Assembly: GCA_965237475.1 (NCBI GenBank)
Contig: OZ250140.1
Location: 1,763,549 to 1,827,548, forward strand
DNA: 64,000 bases
DNA from: Dehalococcoidia bacterium
Lineage (GTDB): Bacteria > Chloroflexota > Dehalococcoidia > Bin125
Reading direction: 5' to 3'
Below, in pieces: positions 6,113-29,584 of this stretch. The translations under genes and the position numbers were made by a program. A model generated the notes under the pieces. That model saw only the letters and a program-made list of their open reading frames with translations. It did not search any database and was not told where the DNA came from. How positions within the stretch are numbered: the first letter of the stretch is position 1; each line of letters opens with the position of its first letter.

Positions 6113-7390
6113 TCAGGCTTCGGCGCTGGTCAGGTTCTCGAGGAACTCGATGTTGGTCTTGGTCCGGGCCAGCCGGTCGAGCAGCCGCTCGGTCGGCTCC
6201 GTGCTGTTGCCGCCCGAGCCGGCCAGCACCGACATCATCCGGCGCAGCAGCCACATGCGCTGCAGCTCCTCGCCCGAGAGCAGCAGCTCCTCGCGGCGCG
6301 TGCTGCTCGCGGCGATGTCGATCGACGGGTAGATGCGCCGCTCGGAGAGCTTGCGGTCGAGCCGCACCTCCCAGTTGCCGGTGCCCTTGAACTCCTCGAA
6401 AACCACGTCGTCGAGGCGGCTGCCGGTGTCGACCAGGCAGGTCGCGATGATCGTCAGGCTGCCGCCCTCTTCGGCCTTGCGCGCCGAGCCAAAGAAGCGC
6501 TTCGGCGGGTAGAGCGCGACCGGGTCGATGCCACCCGAGAGCGTGCGACCGGTCGAGGGCATTTCGAGGTTGTAGGCGCGCGTCAGCCGCGTGATCGAGT
6601 CGAGCAGGATCACCACGTCGCGGCCCATCTCCATCAGCCGCTTGGCGCGCTCCAGGCCCAGCTCGGCGCAGCGCGTGTGATCTTCGACCGGCTCGTCGAA
6701 CGTCGAGGCGACCACTTCGCCGCGCACCGTGCGCCGCATCTCGGTGACTTCCTCGGGGCGTTCGCCGATCAGCACGACCATCAGGTGTACGTCGGGGTGG
6801 TTGGTGGCGATGCCGTTGGCGATCGCCTGCAGCAGCATGGTCTTGCCGGCCTTGGGCGGCGAGACGATCAGTCCGCGCTGCCCGCGGCCCATCGGCGCGA
6901 CGAGGTCGATCACGCGGCCCGAAAGCTCGCTCGGATCTTCGCTCTCGATCGTGAACCGCTGGTGCGGGAAGACGGCGGTCAGCGTCTCGAAGTGGGGCCG
7001 CTGCCTGGCCAGCTCGGGCTCGGCACCGTTGACCAGCACCGCGTCCTGCAGGCCGTAGTACTTCTCGCCGCTCTTGGGCGGGCGGACCGGGCCGATCACG
7101 TAGTCGCCGCTGCGCAGGTCGTGGCGGCGCACGTGCGCCTGCGAGACGTAGACATCGGTCGGCGCGGGCAGCAGCGATTCGCCGCGCAGGAAGCCGTAGC
7201 TGTCGTCGACGACTTCCAGCACGCCGCCCGAGAGCACGTTGCCCTCGGCCTCGCTCTCGGCCTGCAGGATGCGCAGGATGATGTCCTGCTTCTTCAGGCC
7301 GGTGAGGCCGCGAACCTCCAGTTCGCGGGCGCGCGTGAGCAGCTCATCGCGCGTATGGGACTCGAGATCGGTGATGGTCAGGGTCGTCAC
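6113..7390 (-). CDS. rho: transcription termination factor Rho
   Basis: …[15 protein letters not shown]… at the N-terminus, P-loop [12 protein letters not shown] and [20 protein letters not shown] at the C-terminus. Likely GTG start at 7390 with AGAGGT upstream; the ORF continues to an ATG at 7447. Confidence 0.9.
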
Positions 7391-7575
7391 GGCTACCTCT
7401 GATTGCCGACGCTGCGTGCTGCGTGGAAGAGCTGCGCGCGAACGCACGGCGGGACACTGATGCGGTCATTGCTCAACGGTGAGACGGAGCGGCCCGCGGA
7501 ACGAAGTTGCGAGACTGATCGTATGCGACTCGTGCGCTTGCCTGCAAGCACCCGCGCGACACGGGTCACAGAGCA

Positions 7576-16852: not shown

Positions 16853-18019
16853 TCAGAGCCCCGGCCGGACGGGGAGGCCGAGCGCGTGGCGGCCGACGCG
16901 CTGGAAGGAGCCATCGGCGACGATCACGTGCTGCGAGACGGTCTGAACCTCGCGCAGCAGCCGCTGCAGCGGGTGGTCGAGGAAGACCGCATCGCCGCCC
17001 GCGGCGCGGTGGGCGGTGCGGATCACCGACTCCGCGGTGCGCGTCGCCCAGGCCGCCGCGCTGCGCGCCGTGTCGTCCAGCTTCACGGCGTCCGCGACAT
17101 CGCGAACCGGCGCGTCGGCCAGGTCGCGGAAGAGCTGGACGCCGTGACCGCGAATCGCGCGCGTCGCCACGACGATCTCGCCGAGTTCGAGTTGGAAGGT
17201 CTCGCGCTCGGCCAGCGGCGCGCGCGAACCGAGCCGGACCCGCGTCGAGGCGATCTCCGTGACCTCCTGAATCGCCCGCTCGGCGAGCCCCAGCGCGATC
17301 CCGTAGGCGGCGGGACAGAGGAAGGTCACGGTCGGCCGGGCGACCCAGCCCGATCCGCGCAAGACCGGCTGCTCGAGCGGCTGAAGACGGAAGTCCTCGC
17401 TGACGAACTCGTCATCCAGCCGGTAGTGGTTGCTGCCCGTGCCCTGCAGCCCGGCCACATGCCAGGTGTCCTCGATCTGAACCCGCTCACGTGGGACCGC
17501 GGCGGTGACCAGTTCGGGCGGCCCCGGCTCACGTTCCACACCGTCGTTGAGGATGCCCTGCGCGATCACCCAGTCGGCGTGATGGATGCCCGAGCCCCAA
17601 CCCCAGCGCCCGCTGATGCGCCAGCCGCCCTCAACCGGCCGGGCCTCGCCGCCGGGGAACGGTTGGCCGGCGGCGACCGGCCAGCGCTCCGCGCCGAAGG
17701 CGCGCTCGATGCCCGCGTCGGGCAGTCGCGACCCGAGCCAGGCTGACTCATGTGCGCCGATCATCACGCACCATCCGGCCGAGGCGTCGTGCGCCGCCAG
17801 CGCAGCAGTGACTTCGACATGTCCATCGGGGGCGATGTTCGCGCCGCCGACCTCGGCTGGTGCGAAGATCGAAAAGAGCTGGTGTTCGTGCAGCGCGTCG
17901 ACGACTGGCGCGGCCAGTTGGCGCAGCCGTTCGTTCTCCACGGCATGTGCGCGCAGGGTCGGGCCGACCGCCTCCGCCGCCTCCAACCACTGGCCGTACG
18001 ACGCGTCGTGAGCGCTCAT
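16853..18019 (-). CDS. acyl-CoA dehydrogenase family protein (HsaA-like, type 2)
   Basis: Likely ATG at 18019, preceded by a GAGGAGG RBS. The ORF track begins at a TTG at 18025. Paralog of the interrupted gene above. Confidence 0.75.
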   Translation of the reverse strand: MSAHDASYGQWLEAAEAVGPTLRAHAVENERLRQLAAPVVDALHEHQLFSIFAPAEVGGANIAPDGHVEVTAALAAHDASAGWCVMIGAHESAWLGSRLPDAGIERAFGAERWPVAAGQPFPGGEARPVEGGWRISGRWGWGSGIHHADWVIAQGILNDGVEREPGPPELVTAAVPRERVQIEDTWHVAGLQGTGSNHYRLDDEFVSEDFRLQPLEQPVLRGSGWVARPTVTFLCPAAYGIALGLAERAIQEVTEIASTRVRLGSRAPLAERETFQLELGEIVVATRAIRGHGVQLFRDLADAPVRDVADAVKLDDTARSAAAWATRTAESVIRTAHRAAGGDAVFLDHPLQRLLREVQTVSQHVIVADGSFQRVGRHALGLPVRPGL

Positions 18020-18062
18020 GATCAAGCCTCCTCAGCCGGGGCGCTCAGGCTACTCGCGCCTA

Positions 18063-18128: not shown

Positions 18129-19316
18129 ATGGCTGCGGTGAGCGATGTACGGGAGATCATCAGCGGCGACGGGGAGACCGGGGTGGACATCGTCCGCAAC
18201 GTGCGGCGCTGGGTCGACGAGCAGGTCATTCCGTTCGCTGACGCGCTGGAGCACGCGGGCGAGTTTCCGACCGCGATTCATCGTGACATGTGCGAGATGG
18301 GCATCTTCGGTATCACGGTCCCGGAGGCCCACGGCGGGCTCGGCCTGTCGTTCGAGACGTATTCGGCGGTGATCGAGGAGATCGCGCGGGGCTGGATGGG
18401 GCTCGCGGGGATCATCAACACCAACGTGATCGATGGCTGGATCATCGAGCAGCACGGGACCGACGATCAGAAGCAGCGCTTCCTGCCCGGCCTCGCCACC
18501 GGCGAGCTGCAGGGCTGCTTCACGATCACCGAGCCCAACGCGGGCTCCGATGCGCAGGCGATCCGCACCACCGCGACGCGCGACGGCGACGACTACCTGC
18601 TAAACGGCAACAAGCTGTTCGTGACCAACGGCGACCGCGGCGACGTGTATCTGGCGATGACCAAGACCGACCCGAGCGCCAATCCGCGGCACCGCGGAAT
18701 CTCGGCCTTTCTGGTCGAGCGCGACACGCCCGGATTCTCGATCGCGCGGACGATCGACAAGCTCGGTTACAAGGGCCCGGAGACGGCTGAGCTGTTCATG
18801 GAGGACGCACGGGTACCCGCGGGCAACCTGCTGGGCGGCGCTGAGGGGCGCGGCTTTCAGCAGATGATCAGTGGGTTGGAGATTGGGCGGATCAACGTCG
18901 CCGCGCGCGCGACCGGCGTCGCGCAGGCGGCCTTCGACCACGCGATCGTCTACGCGCAGCAGCGCGAGACGATGGGCAAGCCGATCGCGCAGCATCAGGC
19001 GATCCAGCTGAAGCTGGCCGATATGGCGACCAAGATTCGAGCGGCGCGGCTGCTGACCCGCGACGCGGCGCGCAAGAAGGACAGCGGCGAACGCGCGGAC
19101 CTCGATGTTGGCATGGCCAAGCTGTTCGCGACCGAGGTCGCGCTGGAGTGCACGCTCGAATCGATGCGCGTGCACGGCGGCGTCGGCTACACCACGGAAC
19201 TGCCGATTGAGCGCTTCTACCGCGACGCCCCGCTGATGGTGGTGGCCGAAGGCACGAACGAAATTCAGCGCCTCGTGATCGCGCGCCGGCTGCTGGAGCT
19301 GTACCGCGTCGACTGA
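18129..19316 (+). CDS. acyl-CoA dehydrogenase
   Basis: 395 aa. Canonical ACAD motifs: ITEPNAGSD, YLLNGNKLFVTNG, RVHGGVGYTTELPIERFYRDA. Confidence 0.88.
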   Translation: MAAVSDVREIISGDGETGVDIVRNVRRWVDEQVIPFADALEHAGEFPTAIHRDMCEMGIFGITVPEAHGGLGLSFETYSAVIEEIARGWMGLAGIINTNVIDGWIIEQHGTDDQKQRFLPGLATGELQGCFTITEPNAGSDAQAIRTTATRDGDDYLLNGNKLFVTNGDRGDVYLAMTKTDPSANPRHRGISAFLVERDTPGFSIARTIDKLGYKGPETAELFMEDARVPAGNLLGGAEGRGFQQMISGLEIGRINVAARATGVAQAAFDHAIVYAQQRETMGKPIAQHQAIQLKLADMATKIRAARLLTRDAARKKDSGERADLDVGMAKLFATEVALECTLESMRVHGGVGYTTELPIERFYRDAPLMVVAEGTNEIQRLVIARRLLELYRVD

Positions 19317-19337: not shown

Positions 19338-19808
19338 ATGCCCACGAAGGAACTGTTTGGCCGCTACCTCGAGCAGTTTGAGGTCGGCGAGGTGATCGAG
19401 CACTGGCCCGGCCGCACGGTCACCGAGGCCGATGACCTGATGTTCTGCATGCTGACGATGAACCATCACCCACTGCATACGAACCTCGAATACGCCGAGG
19501 GCACGCAGTTCGGCCAGCGCGTGGTTTCGGGTCCGTTCGTCTACTCGCTGGTCTTTGGGATGACCGTGCCGATGATCAGCGGCAAGGCGATCGCAAATCT
19601 CGCGACGAACGACCTGCGGCACACGGCGCCGGTCTTCCACGGCGACACGCTGACGGCCCGCACGGAGGTCACCGGCATCCGCGAGTCACGATCGCAGCCC
19701 GACCGCGGGATCGTGACGGTCAACACGACCGCCCAGAATCAGCACGGCGAAACCGTGTTAGAGTTCACTCGTGCCGTCATGATCCCGAAGCGGCCGGATG
19801 GTGAGTGA
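19338..19808 (+). CDS. MaoC-family (R)-specific enoyl-CoA hydratase/dehydratase
   Basis: 156 aa. Hot-dog fold pattern ...NHHPLHTNLEYAEGTQFGQRVVSG... Confidence 0.8.
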   Translation: MPTKELFGRYLEQFEVGEVIEHWPGRTVTEADDLMFCMLTMNHHPLHTNLEYAEGTQFGQRVVSGPFVYSLVFGMTVPMISGKAIANLATNDLRHTAPVFHGDTLTARTEVTGIRESRSQPDRGIVTVNTTAQNQHGETVLEFTRAVMIPKRPDGE

Positions 19809-20233
19809 TGATCGAAATCAACTCGGGCTCGGACCTGGAACGCTCAGTTGTGCGTGTCGGCAAGGCGCTCGGCCTGGACGTGGAGACGCAAGTCGTCATG
19901 GGCGACCGCATCTGGGGCCCGCGCCGCCACGTTGATGTGGTGCTGAGCAAGACTGACTCCGATCGAATCATCGGCATCGAGTGCAAGTACCAGCGCCAGT
20001 CGGGCTCGGTCGAAGAGAAGATTCCCCTGACGGTCGAGGACATCGAAGACTGGCCGATTCGGGGCATTGTCGTCGTCCACGGCGAGGGCTTCTCGCGCGA
20101 CTTCGTGCCCTTCCTGCGGGGCCGAGGTCGGATCGTGGAGTTCAAGCGCCTCGCCGAGTGGTTGCGCTTCTATTTCCGCCTGTCACGCGAGCGCGCGCTC
20201 CAGGCCGAGATGCTGCTCAACGGCGACTCCTAG
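19805..20233 (+). CDS. small PD-(D/E)xK nuclease, putative type II restriction endonuclease
   Basis: 142 aa. RRHVDVVLSK...RIIGIECKYQ gives a D...(E)xK motif. The start overlaps the MaoC stop (ATGA). The 3' end overlaps the convergent Dam-like methyltransferase by 4 nt. GC is lower than in the neighbours. Confidence 0.5.
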   Translation: MMIEINSGSDLERSVVRVGKALGLDVETQVVMGDRIWGPRRHVDVVLSKTDSDRIIGIECKYQRQSGSVEEKIPLTVEDIEDWPIRGIVVVHGEGFSRDFVPFLRGRGRIVEFKRLAEWLRFYFRLSRERALQAEMLLNGDS

Positions 20234-21066
20234 CCAGCTCGAATCAGGTACTCGGGCACGGGCTGGCGACCGTTGCTGTTGGAGTTGATCGCGCGCCGCG
20301 CTGCGACCTCCGCCAGCACGAACGCTTCTGACCGATAGAGCGCCGCCACATCGGGATGCCCGGAGTTGGACAGCGCCACCGCCGCTCCCTGGCGCGCCAG
20401 CGACTCGGCCGTCGTCGCGAGGCGTTGCTGATCCGCCAGACGGAACGCTGCGGAGGTGTACGACGTAAAGTTCGCCGTCGTGCTGAGCGGCACGTAGGGC
20501 GGATCGAAGTAGACGAAGTCGCCTGTGCCGGCCTCAGCGGCCGCCTCCGTGAAGTCCCCGACGCGTAGCTCCACCCTGGACAGCGCCTCCGAGGCAGCGC
20601 GCAGATTCGGCTCATCGCAGATCATCGGCTTGGCATAGCGGCCGTGGGGCACGTTGAAGCCGCCGCTGCTGTTGACACGGTAGAGACCGTTGAAGCATGT
20701 CTTGTTGAGGAAGATCAGGTTCGTCGCGCCGCCCAGGTCGCAGGTCAGCCGCTTGGCGCGGATGGTGTAGTAGTACTCCGCCCGCGCCTCGCCCTCGCGC
20801 GACCGGTACTTCCCCTCATGGACCCGCAGCGCGTGGACTAACTCCTCCACGTGATCGCGGACCTGGATGTAGGCGTTGATCAGCTCAGCGTTGCTGTCGG
20901 ACAGCACCGCACGCTTGAAGCGCCCCTGCGCCTGCAGCGCGAAGAACAGCGCTCCACCGCCCACGAACGGCTCGTAGTAGGTCTCGATCTGCGCGGGCGC
21001 GGCCTGCAGCAGCTCCGCGAGCAGTTGCGTCTTGCCGCCGGCCCATTTGACGAATGGTCGAGCCAC
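20230..21066 (-). CDS. Dam-like N6-adenine DNA methyltransferase (alpha class)
   Basis: FVKWAGGKTQLL...YYEPFVGGGALFF...NGLYRVN..GFNVPHGRY...DFVYFDPPYVPLSTTANFTSYT is colinear with E. coli Dam and DpnM. Confidence 0.85.
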   Translation of the reverse strand: MARPFVKWAGGKTQLLAELLQAAPAQIETYYEPFVGGGALFFALQAQGRFKRAVLSDSNAELINAYIQVRDHVEELVHALRVHEGKYRSREGEARAEYYYTIRAKRLTCDLGGATNLIFLNKTCFNGLYRVNSSGGFNVPHGRYAKPMICDEPNLRAASEALSRVELRVGDFTEAAAEAGTGDFVYFDPPYVPLSTTANFTSYTSAAFRLADQQRLATTAESLARQGAAVALSNSGHPDVAALYRSEAFVLAEVAARRAINSNSNGRQPVPEYLIRAG

Positions 21067-21148: not shown

Positions 21149-21823
21149 CTAGCGGAAGATGTCGAGCGGGGCGGCGTGGATGAAGATGCCCGGGGCGACG
21201 CCGGTGGTGCTGGCCAGGATCGAGAGGAACAGCGCCCAGACGGTGACGCCGAGGCCCACGACGATCAGCGCTGACCGGTCATCGATGCCCGGGGAAGCCG
21301 CGCGTACCGCCAGGATCGAGAGCAGAAACCAGGCGATCACCGTGACGAGGCCGACGGCGAACGAGATCGGCACGACCAAAAGCGCGAGCTGAGCGACTCC
21401 CACGAGCCCGGCCAGCGCGAGCGGGCGGGCGAGCCGCAGGATGTCGACCCGCACCTCGCAGATTCGGTAGAGCGCCCACCAGCTGACGGCGACCGAGAGC
21501 GCCCAGGCGACGACACCGGCAACGCCGCCGAGCACCACGAGCCGAATCGCGCCCGCCCCGATCTGGGCGCCGTCGACCGCGAGCGCGAGCCAGAACCAGG
21601 CGCCGAGCCCCGCGGCCAACGCAGCGACCGGGACCAAGAGCAGCGCCGCTGTGGTATCGGCGGCGTTGCGGGCGAGGTCAGGGAGCACTTCAAGTTCGCC
21701 GCGCAGCAGGTAGCCGAATAGTTCGAAGCTGCGGCGCACATGAGCGGCGGCGCGGCTTGTCGCACCGCCGGCCGCCGGTCGGGTCGACGAAAACGAAAAC
21801 GGGTGGGGAGTGGTGCGGGACAT
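21149..21823 (-). CDS. integral membrane protein
   Basis: Start MSRTTPHPF at 21823. Five or six TM helices. The upstream ~210 codons of the 437-aa track ORF are an antisense shadow of the UDG gene and were dropped. Confidence 0.5.
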   Translation of the reverse strand: MSRTTPHPFSFSSTRPAAGGATSRAAAHVRRSFELFGYLLRGELEVLPDLARNAADTTAALLLVPVAALAAGLGAWFWLALAVDGAQIGAGAIRLVVLGGVAGVVAWALSVAVSWWALYRICEVRVDILRLARPLALAGLVGVAQLALLVVPISFAVGLVTVIAWFLLSILAVRAASPGIDDRSALIVVGLGVTVWALFLSILASTTGVAPGIFIHAAPLDIFR

Positions 21824-21871
21824 GGCTTGGACACGACCCCAGCCGCCGCCTTCCACAGTACGGTGGGATGT

Positions 21872-22552
21872 ATGCCGCCACAAGCAACAAACATCATCGC
21901 GACGATCGACGCGGAGGTCTCGGCCTGCCGCGCCTGCGAGCGACTCGTGGCCTGGCGCGAAGGCGTAGCGGCTGAGAAACGCGCGGCGTTCCGCGACGCC
22001 GAGTACTGGGGCCGTGGAGTGCCAGGCTTCGGGCCGGCCGACGCGCGGGTCTGGGTCGTGGGGCTCGCGCCCGCGGCGCACGGAGCGAACCGCACGGGGC
22101 GGATGTTCACCGGCGATCGCTCGGGCGACTGGCTCTACCGCGCGATGCATCGGGCGGGGCTGGCGAACCAGGCTGAGAGCACGGGGCGCGACGACGGGCT
22201 GGAGCTGGTCGGAGCGCGCGTGACATCGGTCGTGCGCTGTGCGCCGCCCGACAACAAGCCGACGATCGCCGAGCGTGACCGCTGTCTGCCGTTCCTGGCG
22301 CGCGAGCTGGCTGCACTCCCGGAGCTGCGTGTGATCGTGACGCTCGGCGCCTACGCGTGGGAGAACGTGGCGCGCCAGTTGGGCATCCGCCCGCGGCCCA
22401 AATTCGGGCACGCTCGGGAGACGCTGACCGAGCGTGGGCCGATTGTGCTCTGCTCCTACCACCCGAGCCAGCGCAACACCTTCACGGGCAAGCTGACGGC
22501 GCCGATGCTGGGCGCGATCTTCGCCCGTGCCGCGGAGCTCGCCGGGCTCTGA
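21872..22552 (+). CDS. uracil-DNA glycosylase superfamily protein (family 4/5, Fe-S type; GLAPAAHG motif)
   Basis: CRACERL..., VVGLAPAAHGANRTGRMFTGDRSGDWL, CAPP...TLGAYA. Start chosen at MPPQ (21872) to avoid overlap with the divergent membrane-protein gene. Confidence 0.75.
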   Translation: MPPQATNIIATIDAEVSACRACERLVAWREGVAAEKRAAFRDAEYWGRGVPGFGPADARVWVVGLAPAAHGANRTGRMFTGDRSGDWLYRAMHRAGLANQAESTGRDDGLELVGARVTSVVRCAPPDNKPTIAERDRCLPFLARELAALPELRVIVTLGAYAWENVARQLGIRPRPKFGHARETLTERGPIVLCSYHPSQRNTFTGKLTAPMLGAIFARAAELAGL

Positions 22553-29507: not shown

Positions 29508-29584
29508 GGGCCCTTAGCTCAGTTTGGCAGAGCAGCGGACTTTTAATCCGAAGGTCCTGGGTTCGAGCCCCAGAGGGCCCACCA
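29508..29584 (+). tRNA. tRNA-Lys (anticodon UUU)
   Basis: Cloverleaf by eye: acceptor GGGCCCT/AGGGCCC, D-arm GCTC...GAGC, anticodon loop cTTTTaa, T-arm CTGGG-TTCGAGC-CCCAG, discriminator A and an encoded CCA. Confidence 0.85.

Follow-up and report, generated by a model that had tools for sequence, protein, structure and literature searches.

A small PD-(D/E)xK nuclease and its Dam-family methylase behind a Dehalococcoidia catabolic operon: a probable minimal type II restriction-modification pair

In a stretch of 64,000 nucleotides from a Dehalococcoidia bacterium (Chloroflexota; assembly GCA_965237475.1, contig OZ250140.1, positions 1,763,549 to 1,827,548 of the forward strand; hereafter the window), a small open reading frame (ORF) for a putative nuclease follows the genes of an acyl-CoA dehydrogenase (ACAD) and a MaoC-like hydratase, and converges on the gene of a Dam-family N6-adenine DNA methyltransferase. 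We think it likely that nuclease and methylase together make up a minimal restriction-modification system of type II (IIP-like) whose nuclease is unusually small and uncharacterised, and which has been kept stably in a clade of the Dehalococcoidia. A first-pass annotation, made from the window alone, had offered two alternatives, a GATC-family restriction system or a solitary nuclease next to an orphan Dam; it is the former that the linkage data described below best support. The GATC specificity of both enzymes, cleavage of both strands by a dimer, protection by methylation and a role in defence are inferences.

The argument for a functional pair begins with its persistence. We scanned one genome per species and found 16 loci, all from Dehalococcoidia or Chloroflexota metagenome-assembled genomes (MAGs), the closest (OZ253504.1 and OZ244584.1) 96% identical; by tblastn, a Dam-family gene adjoins the nuclease gene in every one of them. 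ACAD-MaoC genes lie upstream in 12 of these loci, and in L011 MaoC alone is present, further upstream, whilst the upstream genes are not common to L006, L014, L015 and L016. The nuclease of L006 is 83% identical to that of the window, but is preceded by a hydrolase and another gene, and the downstream neighbour of this pair is that of L013 rather than that of the window; in L015 and L016 the methylase gene is found downstream, on the same strand as the nuclease. Since these four loci keep the pair amongst other neighbours, the two genes stay joined as both flanks change.

The same association holds at greater distance. A metagenome scan recovered 532 relatives, from which 80 loci were kept, and a Dam-family gene is adjacent to the nuclease in 62 of them (same strand and downstream in 34, same strand and upstream in 25, convergent in 3). 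Together with the 16/16 genome loci, these counts speak against the idea of an orphan Dam with no adjacent nuclease homologue. Of the 18 loci in which no Dam hit was obtained, 15 have a flank shorter than 900 bp on one side or both; the three whose two flanks each reach 900 bp or more (L053, L055 and L060), and L048 as well, carry a beta-class PF01555 methylase immediately upstream, and the remaining 14 have one flank that does not extend far enough for a judgement. Distant nucleases of 40-52% identity, from a Hydrogenedentes MAG and two other long contigs, also adjoin a D12 methylase, in both gene orders (nuclease-then-methylase and methylase-then-nuclease), amongst unrelated housekeeping genes and in at least three mutually unrelated neighbourhoods. 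The core of the nuclease's Pfam family, PF20472, comprises proteins of ~159 aa, many of them from Polyangiaceae and others from further uncultured bacteria (>1300 hits), and in 3/3 contexts examined these genes lie directly downstream of a PF01555 methylase (L103 2982-4480, L104 3252-4516, L105 3041-4492). The whole of PF20472 thus looks like the nuclease half of compact methylase-nuclease modules, and adjacency that is kept through changes of order, orientation, methylase class and phylum is, as far as comparison of loci can tell, the usual signature of type II restriction-modification modules.

The beta-class methylases deserve a brief description of their own. They occupy positions 2038-2967 of L055, 716-1654 of L060, 325-1305 of L053 and 3-434 of L048. 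The two that were scanned, from L055 and L060, resemble CcrM/HinfI-type enzymes (CcrM catalytic domain 6pbd, E 3e-50), with NCBIfam CcrM model scores well under the cut-off. The nucleases paired with PF01555 are ~48% identical to our query, and perhaps a single scaffold may serve GATC and a GANTC-like site.

What kind of protein is the small ORF? Its residues are numbered here from a GTG start, which gives 142 aa; an ATG at 19808, giving 141 aa, appears the likelier start because homologues begin MIEI... It matches PF20472 (PDDEXK_11) over residues 10-107 with 73.5 bits against a cut-off of 23.7 (E 1.9e-20). The family core scores higher on the same profile (E 1e-32 to 1e-36), and we class the window nuclease in a divergent, Dam-linked PF20472 subfamily, most of whose members are 125-135 aa long. 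A Pfam scan at E ≤ 1 returned nothing beyond PF20472 and a weak DUF234 match, no NCBIfam or PADLOC model matched the protein, and searches against all PDB chains, with the single sequence and with a 52-sequence profile, gave chance matches alone (BamB, ribosomal protein S17). Names given to PF20472 members in the source annotations are limited to 'hypothetical' or 'PD-(D/E)XK nuclease superfamily protein', and cluster names are uninformative.

A confident AlphaFold2 model built on 52 homologues (mean predicted local distance difference test, pLDDT, 87.1; predicted template modelling score, pTM, 0.83) contains a helix at residues 8-21, strands at 25-31, 42-48 and 55-62, a second helix at 68-80 and a last strand at 86-92, which is the canonical minimal PD-(D/E)xK core, alpha-beta-beta-beta-alpha-beta. 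The top Foldseek matches in the PDB are all PD-(D/E)xK nucleases, namely AF1548, the restriction-like endonuclease domain of the R2 retrotransposon, NucS/EndoMS, MspJI, Hjc and Can2/Card1, with E-values of 7e-5 to 1e-2, probabilities of 0.9-1.0, TM-scores of 0.35-0.5 and identities of 10-17%. In the model D44 lies on strand beta2, and E59 and K61 on strand beta3. These are the D...(E)xK residues that the first-pass annotation had picked out in the motifs HVDVVLSK and IGIECKYQ, both of which are present, and its expectation of a nuclease fold with a conserved motif is borne out by the Pfam match, by AlphaFold and Foldseek, and by conservation among 66 relatives, in which D44 is kept in all 66 and E59 and K61 in 65 each. 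Q63, E71 and D79 are likewise invariant (66/66). We considered E12, on the first helix, as a fourth catalytic residue and rejected it, as it is kept in just 33 of the 66. Compared with six orthologues, the nuclease has ratios of nonsynonymous to synonymous substitution (dN/dS) of 0.04-0.15, as low as those of ACAD and MaoC. From the Pfam match, the fold model, the conserved residues and the dN/dS values it follows that the small ORF is a real gene under purifying selection, with a product that is very probably catalytically competent.

The identity of the methylase is more familiar. It matches PF02086 over the full length of the model (1-253 of 253, E 3.5e-57), scores above the cut-off of the Dam-family model TIGR00571 (258.6 bits against 114.85) and fails the E. 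coli Dam equivalog NF008152 (172 bits against 441); we regard it as a Dam-family enzyme and not as the orthologue of E. coli Dam. Its nearest solved relative is DpnM (2dpm, E 8e-62), the GATC methylase of the DpnII system, followed by E. coli Dam (2g1p, E 2e-36). The KWAGGK and DPPY motifs that had been reported for it are both there, and the S-adenosylmethionine (AdoMet)-binding and catalytic motifs are complete; in 66 nuclease-linked Dam homologues the D, P and P of DPPY are found in 66/66 and the Y in 65/66. In cognate complexes, E. coli Dam recognises GATC through K9, Y119, N120, L122, R124, P134 and Y138 (PMC4417163). The window methylase carries the equivalents of K9, N120, L122, R124, P134, R137 and Y138, and has F in place of Y119, as does DpnM. 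Across the nuclease-linked homologues, conservation at the equivalent positions is 66/66 for N120, R124 and P134, 65/66 for L122, 65-66/66 for K9 and 58/66 for Y138. GATC is thus well supported as the probable target of the methylase, and, should the pair indeed be a restriction-modification system, there is a good chance that GATC is its site. Literature searches on GATC methylomes of Dehalococcoidia or Chloroflexi turned up nothing on this clade.

Taken together, we posit the following mechanism. The Dam-family enzyme would methylate adenine at N6 on the host chromosome, most probably in GATC, and the 141-aa protein, most probably as a homodimer, would cut the same site when it is unmethylated, using D44, E59 and K61 together with a divalent metal ion. 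The nuclease gene would have no promoter of its own; it would be the final cistron read from the ACAD-MaoC operon, its translation coupled to that of MaoC, with the methylase transcribed towards it from the opposite strand. The pair would be an old resident, inherited as a unit at one spot in the Dehalococcoidia clade, with its flanking genes rearranged around it.

Several observations weigh against such a system. The structures nearest to the nuclease model are repair, resolution and modification-dependent nucleases rather than classical type IIP enzymes, and the TM-scores are low; no characterised member of PF20472 was found in the PDB, the full-text literature or the source annotations, and a full-text search for PF20472 or PDDEXK_11 returned no paper. 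Stable vertical transmission at a single chromosomal site inside a metabolic operon, with synonymous divergence (dS) saturated, is more reminiscent of a housekeeping function than of a selfish element, and such long vertical inheritance is unusual, though known, for restriction-modification systems. Searches of a phage collection (tblastn) and of viral contigs gave no relative of the nuclease. Plasmids (tblastn) gave two weak partial matches alone, inside 'toprim domain' genes, and a core-family member gave no tblastn match in phages or plasmids; these searches thus give no indication that known mobile elements carry the family. GATC occurs in the window as often as expected (observed/expected 0.99), which makes composition uninformative, and the similarities of nuclease and methylase across distant pairs correlate weakly (r = 0.15). 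A Mantel test for their co-evolution gave r = 0.70, which is driven by close relatives, and was not used.

The most awkward case is L016 (CBDDEI010000002.1). Wherever both genes could be judged they are intact, save in this locus, the sole such case amongst ~80. Its Dam gene (6443-7500) shows ~22 insertions or deletions (indels) and internal stop codons against L015, the two loci being 94% identical overall. The neighbouring nuclease gene is undamaged; its changes are mostly synonymous, and it is better conserved than the flanks, which have 0 indels in ~2 kb. A live GATC nuclease should be lethal here unless the genome holds another GATC methylase. It is possible that a second GATC methylase is encoded elsewhere, that the damage is a local artefact of consensus or assembly (indels are strangely frequent relative to substitutions), or that the nuclease is not lethal without Dam; the last of these would favour an enzyme of nicking or repair, to which we return below.

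Other loci depart from the simple pair by addition. A second, tandem PF20472 paralog is present in four related Dehalococcoidia loci, L007 (5905-6330), L009 (6423-6824), L011 (1838-2248) and L002 (6571-7002, between nuclease and Dam); the window carries one copy. In L007, L009 and L011 the paralog has lost the E-x-K (E59 to V, S or A; K61 to R or M) and kept D44, Q63, E71 and D79, and the comparison of L009 with L011 gives a dN/dS of 0.15, i.e. purifying selection; the L002 paralog has its motif intact. This arrangement suggests an active/inactive heterodimer, or perhaps a regulatory subunit. In L013 the nuclease and Dam genes are separated by an insertion (6499-7365, minus strand), a 288-aa ORF that carries two Endonuclease VII domains (PF02945, E 3e-33) and resembles a homing-endonuclease-type element; the nuclease of this locus has K61R and the highest dN/dS measured (0.15). 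Amongst single proteins, P0132 fuses the N-terminal half of PDDEXK_11 to an IstB_IS21 ATPase, and is probably a gene cut by an IS21 insertion, and P0099 (338 aa) combines an entire PDDEXK_11 domain with DUF7226.

Could the nuclease instead serve genome maintenance, as a nicking or repair enzyme partnered with the methylase, whether in the manner of MutH, which in concert with Dam nicks the strand that lacks methylation in hemimethylated GATC, or in that of Vsr, the partner of Dcm? Its size and fold resemble those of small repair nucleases, with NucS/EndoMS and Hjc amongst the best Foldseek matches, and the long vertical inheritance at one chromosomal site in a metabolic operon under strong purifying selection fits such a role. 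An intact nuclease beside a wrecked Dam, as in L016, would be tolerable for a repair enzyme and not for a restriction enzyme, and the selected paralog without E-x-K in some relatives (dN/dS 0.15) could give a heterodimer with one active site, expected to nick rather than to cut both strands. However, the protein has no sequence relation to MutH/Sau3AI or Vsr (Pfam, E ≤ 1), no mismatch-repair genes were seen at the distant and core-family loci examined, and we know of no lesion specific to N6-methyladenine that would need a Vsr-like enzyme. The family is also scarce and its distribution across phyla is patchy (434 clusters at 50% identity among 1.84 billion), which sets it apart from core repair functions, and it has partners from two unrelated methylase classes, Dam and CcrM-like, whose specificities probably differ; this fits restriction-modification modules rather than repair tied to Dam. 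We therefore hold a repair role to be unlikely, if worth keeping in sight.

It is rather improbable, in our judgement, that the pair is the domesticated or decaying remnant of a restriction-modification system, in which Dam acts as an orphan epigenetic methylase and the small protein is kept for DNA binding, regulation or as a stress-induced toxin, with little or no restriction. Expression of the nuclease rests on the catabolic operon, with no promoter or control protein of its own, and variants that resemble erosion do occur, such as L013 (K61R and the inserted Endonuclease VII gene) and L016 (Dam lost). Yet 65-66 of 66 relatives retain the residues of the catalytic triad, all three of which are present in the window copy, dN/dS values of 0.04-0.15 point to selection on the whole protein, and both genes are intact in all but one locus. 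Chance adjacency of an orphan Dam and an unrelated solitary nuclease is very improbable, as the methylase lies beside the nuclease in 16/16 genome loci, 62/80 metagenome loci and 6/6 unrelated contexts examined, and the linkage survives changed order, orientation and flanks. A bolder conjecture, which we put forward as doubtful, is that PF20472 proteins are methylase-guided, strand-discriminating nickases ('mini-MutH') that work with the linked adenine methylase, in some genomes as an active/inactive heterodimer; in a milder form, they would be the smallest PD-(D/E)xK restriction enzymes known, a single scaffold reading GATC with Dam and a GANTC-like site with CcrM-like methylases.

A minimal type II restriction-modification system remains our preferred interpretation, and the layout of the locus (Table 1) shows how compactly it would be housed. 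The two ORFs delimited by the first-pass annotation are confirmed, as is the 4-nt overlap of their 3' ends; this leaves no space for a terminator between the nuclease and Dam genes, and the same CTAG overlap recurs in L001. A promoter and terminator scan found nothing exceeding shuffled background, and no terminator-like site between the two genes. At its other end, the nuclease gene is joined to the stop codon of MaoC, the final metabolic gene of the ACAD-MaoC operon. The junction reads GGTGAGTGATGATC, with the MaoC stop TGA at 19806-19808, so that a GTG start at 19805 gives a 4-nt GTGA overlap and the ATG at 19808 a 1-nt TGATG overlap. The tight coupling proposed earlier is therefore upheld, although the ATGA said to mediate it is in fact one of these two arrangements. 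The nuclease start overlaps the MaoC stop in the window, in L002 and in L013, and most other orthologues have a spacer of 10-15 nt with a GGAG/GAGG ribosome-binding site before the nuclease gene.

Table 1. Features of the nuclease-methylase locus and its surroundings (window coordinates).
Feature	Position	Strand	Details
Acyl-CoA dehydrogenase (ACAD) gene, upstream of MaoC	18129-19316		
MaoC-like (R)-specific enoyl-CoA hydratase gene	19338..19808	+	PF01575 E 3.5e-24; NCBIfam RipB/Ich E 9e-41, below the curated cut-off
MaoC/nuclease junction	19796..19810	+	Purine-rich Shine-Dalgarno-like GGATGGTGAG, MaoC stop, nuclease start
Putative restriction endonuclease (R), PF20472	19808..20233 (141 aa, ATG) or 19805..20233 (142 aa, GTG)	+	
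Predicted active-site codons	19934..19987	+	D44 GAT 19934-19936; E59 GAG 19979-19981; K61 AAG 19985-19987
Shared CTAG, both convergent stops, 4-nt 3' overlap	20230..20233	both	Plus strand TAG; CTA = TAG on minus strand
Dam-family (D12, alpha-class) N6-adenine DNA methyltransferase (M), 278 aa	20230..21066	-	PF02086, TIGR00571
Methylase catalytic DPPY, aa 188-191	20494..20505	-	
Methylase DNA-recognition hairpin, aa 125-144 (FNGLYRVN...FNVPHGRY)	20635..20694	-	Corresponds to E. coli Dam Y119-Y138 by alignment with 2g1p
Methylase AdoMet-binding motif EPFVGGGALFF	20941-20973	-	
Second, divergent acyl-CoA dehydrogenase gene	16853-18025	-	
437-aa ORF	21149-22462	-	Transmembrane-rich C-terminal ~220 aa likely the real gene; no Pfam match
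Uracil-DNA glycosylase gene	21740-22552	+	PF03167, E 1e-28
ORF of ~800 aa	22357-25074	+	Two matched CoA-transferase family III stretches
tRNA-Lys(UUU) gene, a single copy in the window	29508-29584	+	

The setting of the pair in a fatty-acid operon, which had been remarked on as odd, is real, and the distribution described above makes it an old feature inherited across the Dehalococcoidia clade rather than a recent insertion. A lower GC content than the neighbours, claimed for the nuclease gene in the first-pass annotation, amounts to very little: the small ORF stands at 0.636 against 0.633 for MaoC, 0.667 for Dam, 0.669 for ACAD and 0.676 for the whole window. A foreign origin of the nuclease gene on grounds of low GC was rejected, its GC being the same as that of MaoC. 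Within ~10 kb of the pair, 0/8 neighbouring ORFs scanned matched mobile-element families.

The wider surroundings are catabolic, with the two CoA-transferase family III stretches downstream and a second, divergent ACAD upstream; additional ACAD paralogs lie upstream in related loci. On the minus strand beyond Dam, the 437-aa ORF overlaps the plus-strand uracil-DNA glycosylase gene, and its C-terminal ~220 aa alone are likely a real gene. This smaller gene would precede Dam by 82 nt in the same orientation, and the two may share a transcript.

Why would such a pair matter? The kind of system is well known and our general understanding of restriction-modification would be unchanged; the novelty lies in the uncharacterised family of small nucleases. 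Should the 141-aa protein prove to be a GATC restriction enzyme, PF20472 would constitute a new family of type II endonucleases, whose many members of 125-135 aa would be among the smallest known and could offer a minimal model for the sequence specificity of the PD-(D/E)xK core, and possibly a reagent. A function would likewise be assigned to more than 1000 'hypothetical' proteins of uncultured Chloroflexota, Myxococcota, Hydrogenedentes and other bacteria. On this interpretation, the locus also shows that a restriction-modification pair can persist for long as the passenger of a catabolic operon.

Amongst known systems, DpnII/MboI offers the closest parallel. The window methylase is nearest to DpnM, with the GATC-reading residues conserved; the modules are chromosomal in both cases and, on our interpretation, both of type II, and the predicted logic, to methylate GATC and to cut it when unmethylated, is the same. 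However, the window nuclease has no Pfam match (E ≤ 1) to the DpnII family PF04556 and is about half the size of R.DpnII and R.MboI, which are about 280-290 aa long, and the window contains no second methylase of the DpnA type. MutH and Sau3AI (PF02976) are also PD-(D/E)xK nucleases, and their action at GATC is governed by Dam methylation, yet the window nuclease has no Pfam match to them at E ≤ 1 and they are not in its top 50 Foldseek PDB matches. In E. coli, mutH is unlinked to dam and forms part of a core repair pathway, whereas linkage to a methylase gene is the defining feature of the window nuclease family.

Vsr-Dcm stands as a cautionary case: here too a small nuclease (~150 aa) is encoded by a gene that overlaps or abuts that of a DNA methylase, and yet it is no restriction enzyme. 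Vsr (PF03852) again gives no Pfam match at E ≤ 1 and is not in the top 50 Foldseek PDB matches; Dcm is a C5 methylase, whereas the partners of the window nuclease family are N6-adenine methylases, for which we know of no need for deamination repair. With AF1548 (1y88), NucS/EndoMS (2vld, 5gke), Hjc (2wcw) and the catalytic domain of MspJI (4f0p), the nuclease shares a core with D...(E/Q)xK, but none of these is encoded beside a cognate methylase, and the resemblance is one of fold rather than of family membership.

As for size, PvuII, at 157 aa, is the smallest well-studied PD-(D/E)xK restriction enzyme that we know of. PacI, an HNH enzyme of 142 aa, is cited as being among the smallest restriction enzymes (PMC11529989). 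Both demonstrate that 140-160 aa can suffice for a homodimeric restriction enzyme, although PvuII is absent from the top 50 Foldseek matches of the window nuclease, and PacI differs in fold. Considering that most of its members have 125-135 aa, the subfamily to which the window nuclease belongs lies at or under the size of any characterised PD-(D/E)xK restriction enzyme.

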